This document shows, piece after piece, positions 2,377 through 14,170 of a stretch of DNA of 15,180 nucleotides (position 1 is its first letter; each line of letters opens with the position of its first letter). This DNA is from a virus, in the UHGV virus genome UHGV-0058267; one strand, 5' to 3'. The translations under genes and the position numbers were made by a program. Below the pieces are notes generated by a model. That model was not told where the DNA came from and did no database searches. It worked only from the letters and a program-made list of their open reading frames with translations.

Positions 2377-4787
2377 GTCATGACGATATGAGCAACTCTA
2401 GCGGCTTTAACGAGGCCGCTGCAGCATTTTCATGGAACGGCCCGAAAAAGGCCATTAACCCTTATCTGGACCCGGCGGAAGTTGCGCCGGAGTCTGCACT
2501 TTCAAACCTGATCACTCTGTACGCTGCCGATAATGAGCAGGAACAGCTGCGCCGCGATGCACTGAGTGAGCAGGTCTGGGAGCGTTATTTCTTTAATGAA
2601 TCTCGTGATCCTGTCCAGCGCGAAATGGAGCAGGATAAGCTCATTAGCCGGGCAAAGCTGGCGCATGAACAGCAGCGTTTTAACCCGGACATGGTCATTC
2701 TGGCGGACGTCAGCGCCCAGCCCACCCATATTAGCAAGCAGCTGATGCAACGTATCGAATACTTCAGCAGCCTGGGCAGGCCAAAGGCTTATTCCCGCTA
2801 TTTGCGTGAGACGATTAAGCCATGTCTGGAGCGACTGGATTGTGTACGTGACAGTCAGCTGTCTGCTTCTTTCCGTTTTATGGCAAGCCATCAAGGGATG
2901 GAGGGCCTGCTGATCCTGCCTGAAATGAGTCAGGATCAGGTGAAACGCCTGTCCACCCTGGTAGCTGCGCATATGAGCATGTGCCTTGATGCAGCTTGTG
3001 GCGATTTGTATGCCACCGATGACGTTAAGCCAGAAGAAATCCGCAAGACATGGGAAAAGGTGGCGGCGGAAACCCTGCGTCTGGATGTCATCCCACCTGC
3101 GTTTGAGCAACTCCGTCGGAAAAGAAACCGCCGTAAACCCGTGCCCTATGAACTCATTCCGGGTTCGCTGGCGCGTATGTTGTGCGCCGACTGGTGGTAT
3201 CGGAAATTATGGAAGATGCGTTGCGAATGGCGGGAAGAGCAGTTGCGTGCTGTCTGCCTGGTCAGCAAAAAAGCATCTCCCTATGTCAGCTATGAAGCCG
3301 TGATGCATAAACGTGAGCAGCGCCGTAAGTCGCTGGAGTTTTTCCGTTCTCATGAACTGGTGAACGAAGACGGCGACACGCTGGACATGGAGGATGTGGT
3401 AAACGCCAGCAGCAGCAACCCTGCGCATCGCCGCAATGAGATGATGGCCTGTGTTAAAGGTCTGGAGCTTATCGCGGAAATGCGCGGTGACTGCGCCGTT
3501 TTCTACACTATCACCTGTCCGTCACGTTTCCATTCCACGCTCAACAACGGCAGACCCAACCCGACCTGGACAAATGCGACGGTAAGACAAAGCAGCGATT
3601 ATCTGGTCGGCATGTTTGCTGCATTTCGTAAGGCAATGCACAAAACCGGGTTGCGCTGGTATGGCGTGCGGGTGGCTGAGCCGCACCATGACGGTACTGT
3701 GCACTGGCATCTCATGTGCTTCATGCGTAAAAAAGACCGCCGCGCCATCACTGCATTACTGCGTAAGTTTGCCATCCGTGTAGACCGCGAGGAGCTGGGC
3801 AACAACACGGGGCCACGCTTTAAGTCTGAGCTGATTAACCCGCGCAAAGGAACACCGACAAGCTACATCGCGAAATACATCAGTAAGAACATTGACGGGC
3901 GTGGTCTGGCTGGCGAGATCAGCAAGGAAACGGGTAAATCCCTGCGTGATAACGCCGAATACGTTAATGCCTGGGCGTCTCTGCATCGTGTTCAGCAGTT
4001 CCGCTTCTTTGGTATTCCGGGACGTCAGGCTTACCGTGAACTTCGCTTGCTGGCTGGTCAGGCGGCAAGGCAACAGGGTGACAAAAAAGCAGGTGCGCCG
4101 ATACTGGATGACCCGCGCCTTGATGCCATCCTGGCTGCTGCTGATGCTGGTTGTTTTGCCACCTACATCATGAAGCAGGGCGGCGTACTGGTTCCCCGTA
4201 AATATCACCTTATCAGAACCGCTTATGAAATCAACGAAGAGCCGACCGCCTATGGCGATCACGGCATTCGTATTTATGGCATCTGGTCACCCATTGCAGA
4301 GGGCAAGATCTGCACTCATGCAGTGAAGTGGAAAATGGTTCGTAAGGCCGTTGACGTTCAGGAGGCGGTAGCCGACCAGGGCGCTTGCGCCCCTTGGACT
4401 CGTGGCAATAACTGTCCCCTTGCTGAAAATTTGAACCAACAGGAGAAAGATAAATCAGCAGATGGGGACCCCAGAACGGATATTATCAGCATGGATGACA
4501 AGGAGTTGCACGATTTCCTGCACAGTATGAGCAAAAAAGAGCGCCGGGAACTGGCAGAAAGGCTTCGCCTGGTTAAACCGATACGGCGTAAAGACTACAA
4601 ACAGCGAATTACAGACCATCAGCGACTGCAGCTCGTCTATGAGCTGAAGTCCAGAGGATTTGATGGTAGCGAGAAAGAGGTCGATTTACTCCTTCGCGGC
4701 GGCAGTATTCCGTCAGGAGCAGGCCTGCGTATCTTCTATCGGAACCAGCGTTTGCGGGAAGATGATAAGTGGCGGAACCTGTATTAA
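2373..4787 (+). CDS. A: P2 gpA-like rolling-circle replication initiator (HUH endonuclease)
   Basis: 804-aa ORF; HUH-type motif VHWHLM and paired tyrosines YIAKYISK; size and position match the P2-family A gene. Confidence 0.85.
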
Positions 4788-4879
4788 TTACGCGGGTTAA
4801 CAATTCGTGCTCTAAATAATACCCGGTATATCAGGCTGATGAACGTAAAAAAACGTTTTACATCAGTAAGATTATTGTA

Positions 4880-4899
4880 TACTGTGAATATAAACAGTG
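4880..4899 (+). promoter_or_regulatory. LexA (SOS) box, CTGT-N8-ACAG
   Basis: tactgtgaatataaacagtg: CTGT at 4882-4885, 8-nt AT-rich spacer, ACAG at 4894-4897; lies 40-60 bp upstream of the 4941 ORF within AT-rich promoter-like sequence. Confidence 0.6.
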
Positions 4900-4940
4900 G
4901 TTATATATACAGTATTGCGTGTGGTGTCATAGGAGGAAAA

Positions 4941-5129
4941 ATGCAGGACTATTTTTTGGAGTCTTTGAAGCTCCAGCGCATTGATTTTTTTCTTAAGCTT
5001 GTCGCGGCTAGTGAGTGTAGTGATGAAGAGAAGGGGCTGGCTCTGCAGTGGGTTTCTGAATTGACTGATGAACTCATGGCAAAAATCAGAACTCACGAAT
5101 ACAACCGCTCAATGGATGTCATCAGTTGA
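4941..5129 (+). CDS. small SOS-regulated protein (62 aa), candidate Tum-like antirepressor position
   Basis: ATG at 4941 preceded by AGGAGG; directly downstream of the LexA box; followed 20 nt later by the DinI-like gene. Confidence 0.45.
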   Translation: MQDYFLESLKLQRIDFFLKLVAASECSDEEKGLALQWVSELTDELMAKIRTHEYNRSMDVIS

Positions 5130-5149
5130 GGTGACTTTTATGCGCATTG

Positions 5150-5373
5150 AAATAATGATCGATAAAGAGCAGAAGATTAGCCAGTCTACCCTGGACGCCC
5201 TTGAATCCGAGCTTTACCGCAATCTGCGCCCCCTGTATCCCAAAACGGTAATTCGTATCCGAAAAGGTAGCTCTAACGGTGTGGAACTGACCGGACTGCA
5301 ACTGGACGAAGAAAGAAAACAAGTGATGAAAATTATGCAGAAGGTGTGGGAAGACGACAGCTGGCTGCATTAA
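5150..5373 (+). CDS. DinI-family protein (74 aa)
   Basis: MRIEIMIDK...LDALESEL...WEDDSWLH parallels E. coli DinI (MRIEVTIAK...IDALAGEL...WESADDWF) as recalled; RBS GAGGTGA; LexA box upstream. Confidence 0.75.
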
Positions 5374-5462
5374 GAAACGTTGCTGGCATCAGTACTTGAT
5401 TCTGAAGCCAGCAAGGTTGAACAACGAGCAGGGCGAGGCGTTAGTGTTATCATCAAAGAATT

Positions 5463-6020
5463 TCACATAAACATCTGGATTTGCTCGTTTTTTAGTTGGT
5501 TGATTTTTTCGCGCAATCTGATCTTTTCATCAGCTTTTTCCAAAGAGGCTGGTGACATGCAGTTAATCAAAGCGTCAAGGTGCTCTGGAGATTTGATAAT
5601 AAAGAACTTTTTGTATTTATTAACAAAAACGACAGAGCATTTTTTACGTTTAAGAAGCTCAATCACGTTACTCAGAGTACCCGTGCTCTTCGTATCCCAA
5701 ACCATTAATCCATAATCGGCTTCTTCTGCCATTTTGAGATCTTTCGCAGTGAAAAACGCGCGAGTGCCGGCTGCATGGCTAGTACTTACTACATGTACAG
5801 GCCATGAGCCAAGATTATTGCGCGGTTTTTCTGAGCTACTGAATACTGTGGCTTTTTCACATCCAAGTTCTAGCAATACGCGTTGAACAGATGAATCAAC
5901 ACCATTGGCATCACCAACTACAATACGAAAACGCGAGTTAACAATTTTTTTCAGACGATCCACGATGAGTGTGTCAAGGTTTTTGATGGTTATTGAACCA
6001 GCAACAAATACCGTAGTCAT
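5463..6020 (-). CDS. SLOG/DprA-like Rossmann-fold protein (about 185 aa), candidate nucleotide-binding or processing component
   Basis: Likely start is the ATG at 6018-6020 (MTTVFVAGS...) with GGAG 6 nt upstream. Motifs VFVAGS and GDANGVDSSVQRVLLELG recall the G-x-A-x-G-[IV]-D core of DprA/Smf/LOG-type domains. Starts 2 nt after the upstream gene's stop. Confidence 0.45.
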   Translation of the reverse strand: MTTVFVAGSITIKNLDTLIVDRLKKIVNSRFRIVVGDANGVDSSVQRVLLELGCEKATVFSSSEKPRNNLGSWPVHVVSTSHAAGTRAFFTAKDLKMAEEADYGLMVWDTKSTGTLSNVIELLKRKKCSVVFVNKYKKFFIIKSPEHLDALINCMSPASLEKADEKIRLREKINQLKNEQIQMFM

Positions 6021-6022
6021 CA

Positions 6023-6604
6023 CTATCTCCAAGTCAAAGCTGCAACATAAATGCTTCTAACCTTAGTATAATCGTTTAGCACAGCACAAGCAGCCTCCAT
6101 AGATGCGCCTGTATGGTAGAGGTCGTCAATGATAAGGACATTCCAGTTGCCATTATTCTCAATACTGTCATTAACAGAGAACGAATTACCCAGCGCCGTG
6201 ATTTTCTCTTCTTTTGTATTCAGGTTCTTTAGCGAAGCCCCGCCGGGGGCTTTCAACAAGAGGTCATCGAAGCATGGTTTGCCAACTAGTTTGGCTAGTT
6301 CCTGAGCTATTTCGGTCACTGGCTGGCGTGCACGCTGATTAGATGCAGCCATTGGAACGATAAACCCGACATTGCTGAAATGAGGAAAGGCATGCTCTGC
6401 TAGGCATTGGGCTAAAGGCTTAACTTGTGACCAATCGTCACGGTATTTAAGCTGGAAAAGAGATTCGCCTACCTCAGTACGCTCAGTCTCAAACCGCATA
6501 TGTCCCCACTCATCGTAACCAATGGGAATGCTGCGGATGCTGTGTTTATCCATCGCAAGACCTAATTCCCAATTTCCAACAATCTGTTTTATGTTGACTT
6601 TCAT
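6023..6604 (-). CDS. phosphoribosyltransferase (PRTase)-like protein (193 aa)
   Basis: VLIIDDLYHTGAS fits the type I PRTase PRPP-binding signature (four hydrophobic residues, two acidic, then T-G); first gene of a two-gene minus-strand operon. Confidence 0.55.
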   Translation of the reverse strand: MKVNIKQIVGNWELGLAMDKHSIRSIPIGYDEWGHMRFETERTEVGESLFQLKYRDDWSQVKPLAQCLAEHAFPHFSNVGFIVPMAASNQRARQPVTEIAQELAKLVGKPCFDDLLLKAPGGASLKNLNTKEEKITALGNSFSVNDSIENNGNWNVLIIDDLYHTGASMEAACAVLNDYTKVRSIYVAALTWR

Positions 6605-6951
6605 GGCTCACCGTTTGCTGTGTAAAACACCAAAGACTACCTCTTGTTATATTTGGTGAAAGCGAAAGTTTCATTTTTTGCAGTGGAGATCAAATGTTAC
6701 TCCGTGAACATTTTTAGCATGTGGCCTCGCTACACGGTTTGGCGTAACTACTGCATGTCTATACTGCATGAATCCGCATGATCGTTTAAGGATCGCTCTA
6801 GTTGGGGCCTGCTAGGTATGGCGGGCTTTTGCTTATGTCATGCAGGTGCATGAAAACCACTATATAAAGCGGGCAGGCGTGGCGGGGATACGATTGCGCT
6901 CGCATCCTTTTCGTATTAATCTGATATCAATTTAAAACGAAGAGTTCGCAA

Positions 6952-8055
6952 ATGAAAATTATTTCAATATTTAATAATAAAGGTGGTGTAGGAAAATCCA
7001 CTCTTGGATACCATACTGCGCATGCATTGGCAGAGAAAGGTATTAAAACTTTAATGATTGACCTTGATCCACAGTCGAATCTCACTTTACAGTGTATTTC
7101 TCCTGAGGAGTTAGAAAAGTTATGGCTAGAAGAAGAGCCATTTATTGAGGACTTCCAATCAGCTTTAGAGGAAAGTAAACTTTCGTATCAAGATTTTTTG
7201 AGTAAGCCGAGAAGCATTCATTGCTTATTAAAACCAATAGAAGATGGCGTCTACGAATCTTCTTCACTAAGTTCTGTTTATGAGCTTAATGATAAATTAG
7301 GTATTATTCCAGGTCGTTTAAGTTTGCATAAATATGAGGATAAAATCGCGAAGGGTTGGAGTGATGCCTTCATGGGAGAACCTCAAGCACTGCGACTTAT
7401 TACCAGTATTAGGAACTTATGTCTAGAAGCAGAGGAAAAATTTGGTTATGAAATGGTAATAATAGACACATCTCCTAGTCTCGGTATGCTTAACAGAGTT
7501 ATCATTTCTACATCAACCGGATTTTTTGTCCCATGCATGCCCGATATGTTCTCCACCTTTGGGATTACTAACATAGGAGAGTCATTAAAGAATTGGAAAA
7601 ATCAGTTCGATACCATGTATAAACTTTTGCCTGATAAAAAGAGAAATGTTTTCCCTAAAAACTTCGTTAAGTTTTTAGGTTATACTATTTATAACGCGAA
7701 GAAATATGAAGGCAGAAATGAACTTGATTTAGCGACCGCGCATTACTCATATGTTCAGAAAATTCCCAATGTGATCAAAAAACACATTCCTCAAGAATGT
7801 TATCAAGAGCAAGATCTTGCAGACATTTCACAACCAATTGGTGGAAAATCAGTTATTCACTCGCATAATACTCTTCCTTCTATGTCTCAAAAGTATAGGG
7901 TGCCCATATGGAAAGTTCCTTTCATCCAATCCATGAGCGCAGAAGACAGAGCCACTGTTTCAGGTAATAGACAGACTTTTCTTGACAAGCAGCAGGCATA
8001 TAGTGATTTTGCCGATTCTCTTTTGGCTCGTATTGATAAGATTGGAGAAGAATAG
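6952..8055 (+). CDS. ParA/MinD-family ATPase (367 aa)
   Basis: Deviant Walker A NNKGGVGKST near the N-terminus and Walker B-like MVIIDTSPS; strongly AT-rich coding sequence. Confidence 0.8.
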   Translation: MKIISIFNNKGGVGKSTLGYHTAHALAEKGIKTLMIDLDPQSNLTLQCISPEELEKLWLEEEPFIEDFQSALEESKLSYQDFLSKPRSIHCLLKPIEDGVYESSSLSSVYELNDKLGIIPGRLSLHKYEDKIAKGWSDAFMGEPQALRLITSIRNLCLEAEEKFGYEMVIIDTSPSLGMLNRVIISTSTGFFVPCMPDMFSTFGITNIGESLKNWKNQFDTMYKLLPDKKRNVFPKNFVKFLGYTIYNAKKYEGRNELDLATAHYSYVQKIPNVIKKHIPQECYQEQDLADISQPIGGKSVIHSHNTLPSMSQKYRVPIWKVPFIQSMSAEDRATVSGNRQTFLDKQQAYSDFADSLLARIDKIGEE

Positions 8056-8057
8056 TT

Positions 8058-8735
8058 ATGGCTCTTAAAGAAAAATATGCGGACATTTATAGGCGTCTTA
8101 AAGATGAGATCGATGCCTATGAATATTTCATGAAGAATATTAAAAATTTTTTCGAGTCAACTAAAGTAAAAGCTCATGTCCATTCACTTCGTTTTAGGTT
8201 GAAAGATATTGATCATCTTTTAGAGAAAATAGAAAGAAAAAACCATGAGGATGATCAGTTACCTGAAGCAGAGCGAAAAGGTCATATCACAGCTGAAAAT
8301 ATTTTTAACCGTATAACGGATATAGCTGGAATAAGAGTATTACACCTTCATTTAAGTCAAATGGAAGATATACATCGTGCAATTATGAGGGCAGTAGATG
8401 AAGGGGAGTATGCGCTTTTTGAAGAGCCAAAGGCATATACTTGGGATCCTGAGTCCAAAGTTTATTTTGAGAGTTTGGGTCTTAAGCCTCATGTAAAACA
8501 AAGTTTTTATACGAGCATTCATTATGTCCTGAAACCTAATAGAGAAGGGAGTGTTACTTGTTGTGAAGTTCAAGTCAGAACTCTTCTTGAGGAGGTTTGG
8601 GGGGAAATTGATCATACAATGAATTATCCTATCCAGCATGTCGATGAGAACTGCAAAGAACAGATAAAAATTCTTGCTAGACTGATTGGCGCTGGAAGTC
8701 ATTTAGCTGATTCAATTATGAAACGCTATCAATGA
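8058..8735 (+). CDS. RelA/SpoT-type nucleotidyltransferase (small alarmone synthetase / toxSAS-like, 225 aa)
   Basis: Synthetase-domain motifs in canonical order: R-x-K...K (RFRLKDIDHLLEK), D-x-x-G-x-R (DIAGIRV), Y-x-S-x-H (YTSIHYV), E-x-Q-x-R-T...W...H (EVQVRTLLEEVWGEIDH). Start is 2 nt after the ParA-like stop with GGAGAA upstream. Confidence 0.7.
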   Translation: MALKEKYADIYRRLKDEIDAYEYFMKNIKNFFESTKVKAHVHSLRFRLKDIDHLLEKIERKNHEDDQLPEAERKGHITAENIFNRITDIAGIRVLHLHLSQMEDIHRAIMRAVDEGEYALFEEPKAYTWDPESKVYFESLGLKPHVKQSFYTSIHYVLKPNREGSVTCCEVQVRTLLEEVWGEIDHTMNYPIQHVDENCKEQIKILARLIGAGSHLADSIMKRYQ

Positions 8736-8766: not shown

Positions 8767-9141
8767 TTAAATAAGTTTGTAGTCTTCAAAGTTTATTATC
8801 GGCTCATCTAACCATTTGTTAATCTCCTCAATTCTCTTTTGAAGAGGTTTAAGTTCGTTCCTAACAAAAACCATACTAGCCTTCTCCACATCCCCAAACC
8901 CCCCAACATTATTAGGCATAATCCCCATCATTTGCGGCGGCACGCGGTGCGCAGCCATCATGTCATCGCGGCTGACATTTTTGATATTCAGAAACTCATC
9001 CTTCGCCGCCACCTCTGACAACGGGATAATCTGAAGCCCGTCCTTTTTGCCGTTAGGCGAGTACATAAATAGGTTGCGGAAGTTACCCAGGGCGGCGGAG
9101 CGATGAGTTCTAACGGGATCGTGGTTGATGCGCATCAGCAT
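8767..9141 (-). pseudogene. Q: 3' remnant of a P2-family portal (gpQ-like) gene; 5' two-thirds missing
   Basis: 124-aa frame whose sequence (PNGKKDGLQIIPLSE...MGIMPNNVGGFGDVEKA) resembles the C-terminal region of P2-family portal proteins as recalled. Expected gene is about 340 codons; the frame ends about 40 bp from the divergent gpW start. Confidence 0.5.
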
Positions 9142-9182
9142 ACTGGCGTCCTGAAAGGCGGCGATACAACCGGAGGCCCGGT

Positions 9183-9542
9183 ATGACGCTTTATAGCGGG
9201 ATGAACAATACCAGCGGTAAAGCTATTACTGATATTGACCATCTGCGCCAGTCGGTGCGGGACATTCTGCTGACACCGCAGGGTAGCCGTATTGCCCGCC
9301 GGGAATATGGTTCCCTGCTGTCGGCACTGATAGATCAGCCACAAAATCCGGCATTACGCCTGCAGGTCATGTCGGCAGTGTATGTGGCGCTGAGTCGCTG
9401 GGAGCCACGGTTGACGCTGGATTCCATCACCATCAACAGCAATTTTGACGGTTCAATGGTGGTGGAGCTGACCGGGCGGCGGAATAACGGTGTGCCTGTG
9501 TCCCTTTCCGTATCAACAGGAGCAGAGAATGGCAGTGATTGA
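9183..9542 (+). CDS. W: baseplate protein gpW (gp25-like)
   Basis: 119 aa with GGAGG upstream; size and position upstream of J-I-H match P2 gpW; overlaps the gpJ start. Confidence 0.75.
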   Translation: MTLYSGMNNTSGKAITDIDHLRQSVRDILLTPQGSRIARREYGSLLSALIDQPQNPALRLQVMSAVYVALSRWEPRLTLDSITINSNFDGSMVVELTGRRNNGVPVSLSVSTGAENGSD

Positions 9543-11035: not shown

Positions 11036-12774
11036 GCACAAAATTTTATACCCTGCTGACGGAGATTGGTGCGGCGAAGCTTGCCAGCGCCACTGCACTT
11101 GGTGTGCCGCTTAAAATTACCCATATGGCGGTGGGGGATGGCGGCGGAGCATTGCCGACGCCGGACGCAAAGCAGACTGCACTGGTAAATGAGAAACGCC
11201 GGGCTGCGCTGAATATGCTTTATATCGACCCGCAGAACAGCAGCCAGATTATTGCCGAACAGGTGATCCCTGAAAACGAGGGCGGTTGGTGGATACGTGA
11301 AGTGGGCCTGTTTGATGAGTCAGGGGCATTGATTGCCGTGGGCAACTGCCCGGAAAGCTATAAGCCGCAACTGGCTGAAGGCAGCGGGCGCACCCAGACC
11401 GTGCGTATAGTGCTGATAACCAGCTGCACGGACAATATCACCCTGAAAATCGATCCTGCCGTCGTGCTGGCAACCCGCAAGTATGTGGATGACAAGGCAC
11501 TGGAGCTGAAGGTGTATGTGGATGATCTGATGGCAAAACACCTTGCCGCACCAGATCCGCATTCACAGTACGCGCCAAAAGCCAGCCCGACATTTACCGG
11601 AACCCCCAAAGCGCCAACGCCAGCGGCAGGGAATAATACCACGCAGGTTGCGACCACCGCGTTTGTACAGGCGGCACTGACGGCTCTTATTAATGGTGCG
11701 CCAGCCACGCTGGACACACTGAAAGAAATAGCCGCAGCCATTAACAATGACCCGAAATTCAGCACCACCATTAACAATGCGCTGGCACTGAAAGCGCCGC
11801 TGTCGAGTCCGGCACTTACCGGAACGCCAACAGCACCTACTGCGGCACAGTCGGTCAACAATACACAGATTGCCACCACGGCTTTTGTGAAATCGGCGAT
11901 TGCAGCAATGGTGGGTTCTGCACCTGCGGCACTGGATACACTGAACGAACTGGCGGCGGCGCTGGGGAATGACCCGAACTTTGCCACGACAATGCTTAAT
12001 GCACTGGCAGGTAAACAACCGCTGGACAATACGCTGACTAATTTGAGTGGAAAGGATGTAGCTGGTCTTCTCACATACCTTGGTTTGGGAGAAGCCAGAT
12101 TCTCTGGTCGTTTGTTAAACACGAATATTTTTAAAAGCTCTGGAAAATATATCCCAACACCAGGGACAAAAAAGATAAGGGTCATTGCCTCTGGTGGCGG
12201 TGGCGGCGGCGGTGGGGTTCCTGAAACAACAGAAAATCAGCAGGCAACAGCCGGAGCTGGATTGAGCGGCGCATTTATTGAAGCATTTTTCGAGGTTGAT
12301 AATGATTTCGAAGTCAACGTTATTATCGGTGCTGCAGGTAAAGGGGGGGGAGCCGGAGGAAATTCAGGTAGTGAAGGTGGCACAACTTATTTCGGTTCCA
12401 TGATAACTGCACCAGGTGGTACAGGCGGTGGCGCGGGGGGAGCATCTGCAAACACATCATATATTCAGGGTATTTCATGGGGTGCCAGTCCGACATCGTC
12501 CGGTACAGTACTAAGAGCATTTCGCTGTAGTGCAAAAACACCAGGAGCAATGGTTATCTCTGTTAAAGCTGTAGCAGGTGGTACCGGGGGGGATACACCA
12601 TTAGGTTCAGGCGGTATAGGTGGTGCAAGTTCTTCATCATTCAGCGGACGTGGTGGTGGTAAAGCTGAGGGCTTTGGTGCTGGCGGAGGCGGAGCCTGCG
12701 CACCTGCTGGAAGTGAGGCTCAATCGGGAGGTGACGGTGCCCCGGGAATAGTTATTGTTGAGGAGTATGCCTGA
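11032..12774 (+). CDS. H: tail fibre protein gpH: constant N-terminal part plus currently expressed glycine-rich variable C-terminal part
   Basis: 580 aa; N-terminus MSTKFYTLLTEIGAAKLASA resembles P2 gpH as recalled; the left inversion site lies in-frame at 12068-12093; C-terminal about 227 aa are Gly-rich and lower in GC. Confidence 0.8.
   Translation: MSTKFYTLLTEIGAAKLASATALGVPLKITHMAVGDGGGALPTPDAKQTALVNEKRRAALNMLYIDPQNSSQIIAEQVIPENEGGWWIREVGLFDESGALIAVGNCPESYKPQLAEGSGRTQTVRIVLITSCTDNITLKIDPAVVLATRKYVDDKALELKVYVDDLMAKHLAAPDPHSQYAPKASPTFTGTPKAPTPAAGNNTTQVATTAFVQAALTALINGAPATLDTLKEIAAAINNDPKFSTTINNALALKAPLSSPALTGTPTAPTAAQSVNNTQIATTAFVKSAIAAMVGSAPAALDTLNELAAALGNDPNFATTMLNALAGKQPLDNTLTNLSGKDVAGLLTYLGLGEARFSGRLLNTNIFKSSGKYIPTPGTKKIRVIASGGGGGGGGVPETTENQQATAGAGLSGAFIEAFFEVDNDFEVNVIIGAAGKGGGAGGNSGSEGGTTYFGSMITAPGGTGGGAGGASANTSYIQGISWGASPTSSGTVLRAFRCSAKTPGAMVISVKAVAGGTGGDTPLGSGGIGGASSSSFSGRGGGKAEGFGAGGGGACAPAGSEAQSGGDGAPGIVIVEEYA
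12068..12093. repeat. left 26-bp invertase crossover site (gix/hix-like)
   Basis: ttctcacatacc-tt-ggtttgggagaa: two 12-bp half-sites around a 2-bp core, fitting the TTnTCnnAAACC half-site pattern of Gin/Hin/Cin/Pin sites as recalled. Inverted copy at 13523-13548, with a 21-bp perfect inverted match (12080-12100 versus 13516-13536). Confidence 0.6.
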
Positions 12775-13040
12775 TGAGTAATTTTGCTCTGATTGAACAT
12801 GGCGTGGTGAAAAATATTATTATCTGGGATGGAGAGGGTGATTTATTCTCTAATTGCGAAATTATAAATATTGATCATATAGATGCAGGCGTCGGTTGGT
12901 TCTATTCTGACGGAGAGTTTATAGCACCACCGGAACCGGAAATGACTGAATATGATGTTGGTAACATCGACGCGGTGATGGAAGCAGATACCAGCACCGC
13001 GCCGGGGGTTATCTGGCCAGTTCCACCTGAGATGGTTTAA
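12774..13040 (+). CDS. small protein coupled to gpH, putative tail-fibre assembly/chaperone protein for the expressed fibre variant
   Basis: Start overlaps the gpH stop (TGATG at 12772-12776) with GAGGAG upstream; 88 aa; function inferred from position only. Confidence 0.4.
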   Translation: MSNFALIEHGVVKNIIIWDGEGDLFSNCEIINIDHIDAGVGWFYSDGEFIAPPEPEMTEYDVGNIDAVMEADTSTAPGVIWPVPPEMV

Positions 13041-13269
13041 TCTCAATCAGAATGGGTTCGCCATTCTCGTTAACAGATATTTCCATTCCTTCAGGGATTT
13101 CAGATGCAGTAAAAAACCAGTTATCTTCTGGTAATTCCACAGCCCCGGTCACGTCATGAAGACCGGGGATTACTTCAGTCAAAGTAACAGGATTAAACAG
13201 GCGCACAATAAACTCTCCAGGAAAAAGCACTTGTTGATGGTCTTCCGTCGTACATCTGGCAGCGGACAT
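13009..13269 (-). CDS. small protein, putative tail-fibre assembly/chaperone protein of the silent cassette
   Basis: Minus-strand ORF converging on 12774-13040 (about 30-nt overlap at the 3' ends). Start codon uncertain (ATG at 13269, GTG at 13230, or the tracked start at 13296); overlaps the end of the silent fibre cassette. Confidence 0.3.
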   Translation of the reverse strand: MSAARCTTEDHQQVLFPGEFIVRLFNPVTLTEVIPGLHDVTGAVELPEDNWFFTASEIPEGMEISVNENGEPILIEIKPSQVELAR

Positions 13270-13534
13270 AAAAACCTGTATTACTGACCTGGTCATCCAC
13301 GATCATTGAAACGTGAACGTTATTAGGTGTGGCCTCGTAATCTGTTCTTATTCTTTCCGCTATGCTGATAAAACGTGAAAGCTTAGGTAGTGCAATTGGA
13401 TAAACGACTTTAGCCAGCCCATTATCATTGGAACCACCAGTTCCAAATACTTCTATTGCACCATCTGACCAGCGTATCCATGCACCATTGACATTAGCTC
13501 CTCGCTGAATGACATATCTGGCTTCTCCCAAACC
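13193..13534 (-). CDS. silent alternative tail-fibre C-terminal cassette, promoterless and start-less in this orientation
   Basis: The minus-strand frame reads ...GLGEAR-YVIQRGANVNG... through the right crossover site, and the same GLGEAR junction is encoded in gpH at the left site (LTYLGLGEAR). Inversion would fuse about 110 alternative codons onto the gpH constant part. Confidence 0.55.
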   Translation of the reverse strand, partial: GLGEARYVIQRGANVNGAWIRWSDGAIEVFGTGGSNDNGLAKVVYPIALPKLSRFISIAERIRTDYEATPNNVHVSMIVDDQVSNTGFYVRCQMYDGRPSTSAFSWRVYCAPV

Positions 13535-13548
13535 AACGTTTAAGAAAA
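13523..13548. repeat. right 26-bp invertase crossover site (gix/hix-like)
   Basis: ttctcccaaacc-aa-cgtttaagaaaa; inverted relative to 12068-12093; about 55 bp upstream of the invertase start. Confidence 0.6.
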
Positions 13549-13603
13549 TGCAGAGATTACGGCTAACTGGCATCATCTCCGGTTTTTATTCAGGGGGATG
13601 ATC

Positions 13604-14170
13604 ATGCTTATTGGCTATGTACGCGTGTCAACAAATGACCAGAACACCGATTTGCAACGTAATGCACTGAACTGCGCGGGATGTGAGCGGATTTTTGAGG
13701 ACAAAATCAGTGGCACTAAGTCCGACAGACCGGGGCTGAAAAAACTGCTCAGGACACTATCGGCAGGAGACACGCTGGTTGTCTGGAAGCTGGACCGGTT
13801 GGGGCGCAGTATGCGGCATCTTGTTACGCTGATAGAAGAGTTGCGCCAGCGTGGCGTGAATTTCCGAAGCCTGACTGACAGTATTGATACCAGTACCCCA
13901 ATGGGCCGTTTCTTTTTTCATGTCATGGGTGCCCTGGCTGAAATGGAACGCGAACTGATAGTTGAACGTACCAGGGCAGGGCTGGCTGCAGCTCGTGTTA
14001 AAGGCAGAGTAGGTGGACGCCGTCCTAAGTTGACCAGCGAACAGTGGGCACAGATTGGGCGTTTACTCGAGGCCGGAGAATCAAGACAGCGTATTGCACT
14101 GATTTTTGATGTAGGCGTTTCTACCATTTATCGAAAATTTCTGGCAAATAAGAGCAATGAATCTCCCTGA
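13604..14170 (+). CDS. serine-recombinase DNA invertase of the Gin/Hin/Cin/Pin family
   Basis: MLIGYVRVSTNDQNTDLQRNAL... is near-identical in its N-terminus to Mu Gin as recalled, with the catalytic Ser in RVSTNDQ and a C-terminal helix-turn-helix region; about 189 aa. Confidence 0.9.
   Translation: MLIGYVRVSTNDQNTDLQRNALNCAGCERIFEDKISGTKSDRPGLKKLLRTLSAGDTLVVWKLDRLGRSMRHLVTLIEELRQRGVNFRSLTDSIDTSTPMGRFFFHVMGALAEMERELIVERTRAGLAAARVKGRVGGRRPKLTSEQWAQIGRLLEAGESRQRIALIFDVGVSTIYRKFLANKSNESP

Follow-up and report, generated by a model that had tools for sequence, protein, structure and literature searches.

A compact PRTase-SLOG gene pair in the P2 prophage defence hotspot, a probable miniature relative of the ShosTA and PsyrTA toxin-antitoxin systems

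The association of a PRTase with a DprA-like protein is established in anti-phage defence. The defence role of two toxin-antitoxin systems composed of PRTase toxins and DprA-like antitoxins, ShosTA and PsyrTA, was validated by Millman et al. (2022); deletion mutants of shosA and psyrA were not obtained in that study, possibly owing to toxicity. A 'DprA + PRTase' system of E. coli APEC O1, which is ShosTA, was likewise validated and found to protect against T7 and lambda (Rousset et al., 2022). Structural work on ShosT revealed that residues 1-164 form a HAD-like pyrophosphatase and residues 165-424 the PRTase to which it is fused, and the toxicity was lost in a D331A/D332A mutant. ShosA was found to form a dimer of SAM and DprA folds that binds ssDNA through R139, R234 and R261, and to bind RecA but not ShosT. 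With RqlHI (PsyrTA), the toxic part was localized to the C-terminal ComF-like PRTase domain, and an interaction between RqlH and RqlI was reported. All listed relatives of ShosA carry PF02481. What the DprA-like antitoxin does in ShosTA and PsyrTA is disputed.

Related pairings are known from other settings. ComFC binds ssDNA and, in other species, interacts with DprA. DS-32, a validated E. coli system, comprises a PRTase and a NADAR N-glycosidase-type protein, and Brzozowski et al. (2019), with reference to Burroughs et al. (2015), mention the pairing of YpsA-family SLOG proteins with PRTases.

The gene pair considered here lies on the minus strand of UHGV virus genome UHGV-0058267, and the window (the whole stretch of 15,180 nucleotides that was analysed) represents an E. 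coli prophage of the P2-like type, which matches E. coli strain CFSAN061762 at 100% identity over positions 5300-7000. The RefSeq gene order runs from cI, cII, a Dam methylase, the replication endonuclease gpA and a DinI-like gene to the pair, and beyond it to a ParA-like/RelA-SpoT pair, the portal and the terminase. The locus sits between gpA/DinI and the portal gene, which is the variable 'old/tin' defence hotspot; the P2 hotspot in this interval was defined by Rousset et al. (2022), and the suggestion of a phage defence hotspot in the preliminary description of this DNA is thereby borne out. The features of the locus are as follows.

6605-6875, minus strand: non-coding region upstream of gene 1, presumed to carry the promoter and moving with the cassette
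6023-6604, minus strand: gene 1, encoding a ComF-like stand-alone PRTase, the putative toxin (from the ORF, its sequence, AF2, Foldseek, PADLOC and dN/dS)
6101-6142, minus strand: predicted PRPP-binding loop NVLIIDDLYHTGAS of protein 1, residues 155-168, including the D160-D161 acidic pair and T165-G166
6018-6031, minus strand: coupling junction TGG-AGA-TAG-TG-ATG, read from the sequence
5463-6020, minus strand: gene 2, whose product is a minimal Rossmann protein of the SLOG/DprA-like type and the putative antitoxin or regulator
5895-5915, minus strand: GDANGVD, the SLOG/DprA nucleotide-binding loop 'GxAxGxD' of protein 2, residues 36-42
5466-5495, minus strand: C-terminal tail ..LKNEQIQMFM of protein 2, residues 176-185, a candidate instability tag

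The cassette that holds the pair has a GC content of 40-45%, vs 53-58% for the phage core. It is 99% identical in other E. coli genomes to approximately position 6904 and divergent beyond, where other strains have a different neighbour, an AIPR gene, the adjoining cassette having been swapped. A sigma-70 consensus scan of the minus strand upstream of gene 1 gave no convincing promoter.

The preliminary description had presented the pair as a candidate undescribed system that could not be matched to a named one. The second part of this claim is not supported; a PRTase with a DprA-like partner is the architecture of both ShosTA and PsyrTA/RqlHI. The first part holds for the compact form, which was found to be neither named nor among the tested systems, but not for the kind, which is known, nor for the pair itself, which has been catalogued: the exact sequences of both proteins constitute system #98 of Table S5B in Rousset et al. 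(2022), and the entire arrangement, including the ParA/RelA neighbours, is given in Table S5A of the same study, the reported domain annotation being LDcluster4/DNA_processg_A. Both sequences are absent from its tables of validated and additionally tested systems, and a literature search, which included searches by accession, found no later paper on the gene pair. The kind is thus that of ShosTA and PsyrTA, and the compact form has been catalogued once and is so far unnamed.

Both ORFs are as first described. Gene 1 extends from an ATG at 6602-6604 to the TAG at 6023-6025 (193 aa), and gene 2 from an ATG at 6018-6020 to a TGA at 5463-5465 (185 aa); the ATG is preferred as the start of gene 2 over an upstream TTG at 6032 because its homologues begin with MTT. 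The genes do not overlap, a spacer of 2 nt (6021-6022) separating the TAG from the ATG, and the GGAG Shine-Dalgarno of gene 2 (6027-6030) is located within the final Trp-Arg codons of gene 1. This junction, ..TGGAGAtaR(n2-5)ATGAC.., is kept in the Klebsiella-like, Terracidiphilus, Neisseria and further loci, and the two genes are translationally coupled. Comparison with a homologue of 89-93% identity gave dN/dS values of 0.051/1.168 (~0.04) for gene 1 and 0.033/0.665 for gene 2, which indicate strong purifying selection on both. Homologous clusters number 741 for the PRTase, counted at 90% identity, and 1810 for the SLOG protein, and are of near-constant length (~193 and 185 aa). Given these clusters together with the dN/dS values, the two are regarded as real genes and not chance ORFs. 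In RefSeq, they are annotated as a 'ComF family protein' (WP_024219116) and a 'hypothetical protein' (WP_096314295), respectively.

The PRTase signature noted from the letters of the sequence was found again at residues 156-168 of protein 1, where positions 6101-6139 encode VLIIDDLYHTGAS. In an alignment of 36 homologues, no variation is seen at D160, T165 and G166 and almost none at D161. An AF2 model of the protein (pLDDT 89.6) has the PRTase fold with each of its signature loops and with a small Cys-free beta meander over residues 1-42 preceding a PRTase core at approximately 43-193. The closest structure retrieved by Foldseek was ComFC of H. pylori (7p0h; E 2.5e-6, TMq 0.64), followed by APRTs and the solved structures of ShosT (8zvd, E 3.4e-5). 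With the PADLOC models, protein 1 matched the toxins ShosT (E 1.3e-8) and PsyrT (E 1.5e-7), aligning to positions 538-681 of the 689 in the PsyrT profile. Both toxin models match all 36 relatives of protein 1, at best with E values of 4e-11 (PsyrT) and 6e-11 (ShosT); the retron PRTase_III-A model matches only one member of the family. Protein 1 is thus homologous to the ShosT/PsyrT clade, and its PRPP loop can be aligned to KILVIDDFCTEGNA of ShosT, a correspondence of motifs for which alone hhalign, with a probability below 3% for protein 1 against ShosT, was used. Sequence-only searches of the PDB, both with the single proteins and with the family profiles, returned matches to the PRPP loop or noise only. 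The NCBIfam comF model (TIGR00201) scored 23.8 bits vs a cut-off of 233.55; no cysteine occurs in residues 1-66, so the four-Cys zinc finger of ComFC is absent, and no helicase domain was found in the protein. Protein 1 is a ComF-like PRTase with its PRPP-binding loop intact.

The description of protein 2 as a SLOG/DprA-like Rossmann protein is likewise upheld, by the GDANGVD motif and by the fold. Its AlphaFold model (pLDDT 94.7) consists of a Rossmann core (approximately residues 1-142) and C-terminal helices (145-184), and the best match in a Foldseek search of the PDB was the antitoxin ShosA (8zva, E 3.5e-5), followed by DprA. The protein has the marks of a SLOG fold: it is Rossmannoid and has both the glycine-rich loop and a helix-cap motif that contains GT, and G36, D37, A38, G40 and D42 of the loop are invariant among 33 homologues. 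In sequence searches the relationship is distant. Pfam and NCBIfam searches with protein 2 itself gave no match, and PADLOC returned PsyrA alone and weakly (E 0.012, profile positions 155-276). Among the 33 relatives, 14 match PsyrA, 9 match ShosA and 13 match Pfam DNA_processg_A, all of these weakly (for DNA_processg_A, E 1.2e-3 at best), and none matches a YpsA or LOG model. The probability given by hhalign for protein 2 against single ShosA sequences and a ShosA family alignment was below 3%, which is below significance, and these alignments serve only to relate motifs: GxAxGxD, P-(K/R)-N and W-x-x-K-S-(x)-G-T are common to the protein 2 family and ShosA, with GDANGVD aligned to SGLAYGID of ShosA. 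On this motif-level alignment of low statistical confidence, R139, R234 and R261 of ShosA correspond to I10, A92 and I120 of protein 2, and the ssDNA-binding arginines of ShosA thus provisionally appear to be missing. No HTH domain was found in protein 2, and its 185 residues leave no room for a SAM domain.

The LOG motif is PGGxGTxxE, in which the Glu is catalytic. Protein 2 carries KSTGTLSN at the equivalent place, and by motif alignment its invariant Asn118 occupies the position of this Glu; a reading of protein 2 as a LOG-type hydrolase was down-weighted for this reason. At the C-terminus, pLDDT drops to 62 in the final ten-residue block, and the homologues share a conserved hydrophobic terminus, Q-x-x-(M/L)-(F/I)-x. 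The tail may act as an instability tag; the instability of ShosA has been reported to be mediated by its C-terminus (Pu, 2025).

Comparison with the named systems shows a common core and a series of missing parts. ShosTA (E. coli APEC O1 / KTE181) consists, as here, of two genes, of which one encodes a PRTase toxin and the other its DprA-like SLOG partner, and has also been found in the P2 prophage hotspot. Its toxin shares with protein 1 the clade and the acidic pair of an intact PRPP loop, and ShosA, the leading structural match of protein 2, shares GxAxGxD and WxxKSGT with it. However, ShosT is 424 aa long and carries at its N-terminus a HAD-like pyrophosphatase that is lacking in the 193-aa protein 1. 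Similarly, ShosA has 327 aa with a SAM domain, Pfam DNA_processg_A and three ssDNA-binding arginines, whereas the 185-aa protein 2 has only the Rossmann/SLOG fold in common with it and scores under the thresholds for ShosA, PsyrA and Pfam DprA. Both proteins have roughly half the length of their equivalents in ShosTA and, since the pyrophosphatase, the SAM domain and apparently the ssDNA arginines are missing here, the mechanism of ShosTA is not simply transferable. With PsyrTA/RqlHI, the likeness is to the ComF-like C-terminal PRTase of the toxin and to the DprA/MoCo-carrier-like (SLOG) region of the antitoxin; PsyrT/RqlH is, however, a RecQ-like helicase-PRTase fusion of 690 aa and PsyrA/RqlI a protein of ~400 aa with a C-terminal HTH, neither of which additional domains is present in this pair. 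ComFC and DprA, which are functional partners, belong to the same two superfamilies as proteins 1 and 2, but ComFC has its zinc finger where protein 1 has the 42-residue meander, protein 2 is without the extra domains and, on the provisional alignment, the DNA-binding residues of DprA, and the gene pair has no competence context.

More distant are the type III retron effectors, DS-32 and OpnC of Ophion. Each has a PRTase effector in an anti-phage system, as is proposed here, and that of DS-32 acts alongside a small protein that is a putative antidote. These PRTases form a different clade from protein 1, as reflected in the solitary PRTase_III-A match among its relatives, and their partners differ as well, being a reverse transcriptase with msDNA (retron), NADAR (DS-32) or rSAM and PHP proteins (Ophion) in place of SLOG. 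Among other SLOG families, YpsA is set apart by the failure of the Pfam YpsA model to match any member of the protein 2 family, the weak matches of which are to DprA, ShosA and PsyrA, and the LOG phosphoribohydrolases by their catalytic Glu.

Conservation of the pairing was assessed with loci from 20 viral contigs (found with the PRTase as query) together with those of Terracidiphilus, Neisseria, a second E. coli variant and a small RepA_N contig. The SLOG gene was found directly 3' of the PRTase gene and on the same strand in all 32 assessable loci, the viral contigs included (20/20). The ends of the two alignments are at most 16 nt apart, with the exception of 37 nt in L014, the most divergent locus, and the order persists down to 47% identity in the viral-contig loci and 29% in L014. 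The surroundings vary greatly. In the window, the cassette lies in the section of the P2 hotspot between gpA and cos, and the pair recurs in the gpD-ogr gap of other P2-like prophages, which is a second P2-like hotspot. Pairs are also found on chromosomes, including those of Terracidiphilus and Neisseria, with sites beside uvrC or scpB; some adjoin integrase-like ORFs (as judged by N-terminal sequences only), and one resides on a 3.65-kb RepA_N contig with little other content. The pair is uncommon in E. coli: among 5426 complete genomes, the variant of the window was present in 16 and the second variant in 8 (~24 together). A 404-aa protein, P0491, was considered as a natural PRTase-SLOG fusion but was not counted, as a TGA falls exactly at the domain junction in the DNA and would have to be translated as Trp for a fusion to result; the repA gene beside it has a TGA 35 codons ahead of its called end, and this locus either uses genetic code 4 or holds two separate genes.

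For the SLOG protein, a profile search of 1.84 billion representatives yielded 2093 relatives, mostly of 150-200 aa, with 274 representatives (50% identity) at E ≤ 1e-30. Some of these relatives carry NADAR, DUF4326, Abi_alpha, HEPN_AbiU2 or antitoxin-type HTH domains as fusion partners, which marks the SLOG clade of protein 2 as a promiscuous module of conflict systems; the first four of these fusions fit a sensor or processing role as much as that of an antitoxin.

Taken with its relatives, the pair is probably a compact two-gene module of the toxin-antitoxin type, of the same kind as ShosTA and PsyrTA and carried as accessory cargo in the P2 defence hotspot. For such a module, we infer a toxicity, its neutralization, a trigger and an anti-phage phenotype along the following lines. 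The PRTase encoded by gene 1 would be the effector; it would bind PRPP and, if unrestrained, would most likely poison nucleotide or DNA metabolism in the manner of the homologous PRTase domains of ShosT and RqlH/PsyrT. The SLOG/DprA-like product of gene 2, supplied in fixed ratio through translational coupling, would hold the PRTase harmless, and phage infection would tip the balance to the toxin such that the infection is aborted. The trigger could be a shut-off of host synthesis, upon which a labile antitoxin would decay, or infection could yield a ligand or ssDNA that is bound by the SLOG domain. As protein 2 has no SAM domain and apparently none of the arginines, the protein-interaction and DNA-binding parts of ShosA being missing, neutralization is more likely to be direct, through binding of the PRTase as has been reported of RqlI and RqlH, or dependent on a ligand than to proceed by the RecA/ssDNA route.

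The preliminary description had instead envisaged an enzyme-sensor or enzyme-effector pair acting on nucleotides or nucleotide-derived signals. In its present form, this reading has the SLOG protein sensing a nucleotide-derived signal or phage ssDNA and activating an otherwise idle PRTase, resulting in the depletion of PRPP or production of an aberrant nucleotide. It is retained as a rival, but an unlikely one: the closest characterized relatives are toxin and antitoxin, with the PRTase of both being toxic alone and the DprA-like partner serving as its antidote, as the unobtainable shosA and psyrA deletions would also have it if toxicity was the cause, and strict coupling and the want of any partnerless PRTase (32/32 paired) are as would be predicted for an antidote. 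An antidote could, however, also be enzymatic. LOG-type SLOG enzymes act on nucleoside monophosphates, and their chemistry is the hydrolytic reverse of the PRTase product. In a manner resembling DarTG, the PRTase would place ribose-5-phosphate on a free base or on one within a nucleic acid, and the SLOG protein would cleave the N-glycosidic bond. The absence of direct binding between ShosA and ShosT would be in keeping with this, as would the NADAR N-glycosidase-type partner of the DS-32 PRTase and the NADAR fusions within the SLOG clade itself. Nevertheless, with an invariant Asn aligned to the catalytic Glu, no LOG or YpsA match in the family, and the non-enzymatic DprA, ShosA and PsyrA as nearest sequence relatives, such an antidote is considered quite improbable.

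That the pair is not toxic but a phage-borne miniature of the competence proteins ComFC and DprA, binding incoming or replicating ssDNA and either passing it to recombination or sequestering it, is suggested by the best structural match of protein 1 and its RefSeq name, by the resemblance of protein 2 to DprA, and by the ssDNA binding of ComFC and its interaction with DprA in other species. This is very unlikely, given that the zinc finger that defines ComFC is absent, the comF model scores a tenth of its cut-off, the ssDNA arginines of DprA are apparently not conserved, its SAM and C-terminal domains are lacking, and the pair travels as mobile cargo of hotspots and a small replicon and not as a member of a competence regulon. 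The prospect of ordinary purine/pyrimidine salvage enzymes, which the preliminary description had itself named as the result of domain searches that would tell against its proposal, is close to negligible. Both proteins are almost invisible to the Pfam and NCBIfam models: Pfam gave Pribosyltran for protein 1 (E 0.01), and neither library gave anything for protein 2. The local matches of protein 1 to APRT, PyrR and HGPRT are weak (E 0.01-1) and span only ~25-50 residues around the PRPP loop. A housekeeping identity was rejected on distribution and context: the genes occur in ~24 of 5426 complete E. coli genomes, and in every case a mobile element carries them and the SLOG partner is present.

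As a probable toxin-antitoxin module, the pair represents a miniature and widespread version of the ShosTA/PsyrTA kind, without pyrophosphatase, helicase, SAM or HTH domains and apparently without the ssDNA-binding residues. Such loci are probably overlooked by present defence finders, since the partner fails both the ShosA and PsyrA models. Should it prove to be a working defence module, the pair would define the minimal functional core of ShosTA and PsyrTA and provide a simpler object with which to find the acceptor of the PRTase and the mechanism of its neutralization. A bolder proposition, which we hold to be unlikely, is that a PRTase with a bare SLOG domain is all that the core of any ShosTA/PsyrTA-type system comprises and that neutralization occurs without ssDNA or RecA, the SLOG protein either reversing or intercepting the phosphoribosyl product or gating the enzyme directly on a nucleotide ligand. 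If true, the mechanistic model of ShosTA would be revised and the acceptor of the toxic PRTase would become easier to identify. Reversal or interception of a product by SLOG would have parallels in the PRTase and NADAR proteins of DS-32 and in DarT/DarG.

Between the PRTase-SLOG pair and the neighbouring cassette in the old/tin hotspot lies a short cos-like sequence, and the relevant features are as follows.

6876-6894, plus strand: cos-like sequence GGCGTGGCGGGGATACGAT, between the PRTase-SLOG and the ATPase-RelA/SpoT cassettes
6952-8735, plus strand: tightly coupled ParA/MinD-like ATPase and RelA/SpoT-domain gene pair, adjoining the PRTase-SLOG pair

GGCGTGGCGGGGATACGAT is similar to the 19-nt cohesive terminus of phage 186; the cos-like pattern gave no matches in 200 shuffles. 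Because the cassettes flank this site and other E. coli genomes cease to be homologous to the window at approximately 6904, the 'hotspot' seems to comprise two variable slots, one on either side of cos. At the site of the ATPase and RelA/SpoT pair, other strains carry an AIPR gene in its place, and the same arrangement with the ATPase and RelA/SpoT pair is tabulated in Table S5A of Rousset et al. (2022). The first gene of this neighbouring pair (36% GC) encodes a 367-amino acid ParA/MinD-like ATPase (AAA_31, E 6.5e-28), and following a gap of 2 nt, the second encodes a protein of 225 amino acids with a RelA/SpoT domain (E 9.6e-17). With PADLOC, only weak matches to PDC-M28B and PDC-S33 were obtained, and the pair may represent a toxic module of the small-alarmone-synthetase type with an unusual ATPase partner.

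Homologs of the PRTase-SLOG pair include the following.

4411-5558 of loci L006-L010: second E. coli variant of the pair, in other E. coli strains
127-2705 of L014: very divergent pair, on a 3.65-kb small RepA_N replicon-like contig

The proteins of the second variant (195 and 185 amino acids) are 57 and 63% identical to those of the window, and their genes are situated between gpD and ogr, another variable spot of P2-like prophages, adjoining a hok-like gene. Eight of the 5426 complete genomes carried this variant, and a plasmid gave one additional match (80-90% identity). Identity of the L014 copy to the pair is 29 and 36%. It has a TGA codon exactly where the PRTase and SLOG parts meet, and repA has one close to its end; the gene caller took both as Trp, and no canonical start codon follows the TGA of the junction. 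L014 may use genetic code 4 and encode a true PRTase-SLOG fusion, or it may carry two separate genes. Elsewhere, the SLOG clade of the second protein is fused to NADAR, DUF4326, Abi_alpha, and HEPN_AbiU2 domains (relatives P0399, P0414, P0471, and P0488), and a conserved linker is common to the two N-terminal fusions, those with NADAR and DUF4326; this suggests that proteins of phage-host conflict can reuse the clade as a regulatory or processing module.

The window matches strain CFSAN061762 (98% identity) no further than 9088, within the region 8767-9182, where the portal gene is reduced to a 124-amino acid C-terminal fragment. The baseplate and tail genes abut this fragment directly, with gpW at 9183, and hence most of the portal gene, together with the terminase, capsid, and lysis genes of the reference, is absent; either the prophage is defective through deletion, or the sequence is a composite. 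Further along are two overlapping features.

12774-14170: candidate invertible tail-fibre segment, downstream of tail-fibre gene H
13598-14170: Hin/Gin-type DNA invertase, N-terminus MIMLIGYVRVSTNDQ

Small, oppositely oriented tail-fibre-tip and assembly ORFs adjoin the invertase, and the segment as a whole looks like an invertible host-range region.
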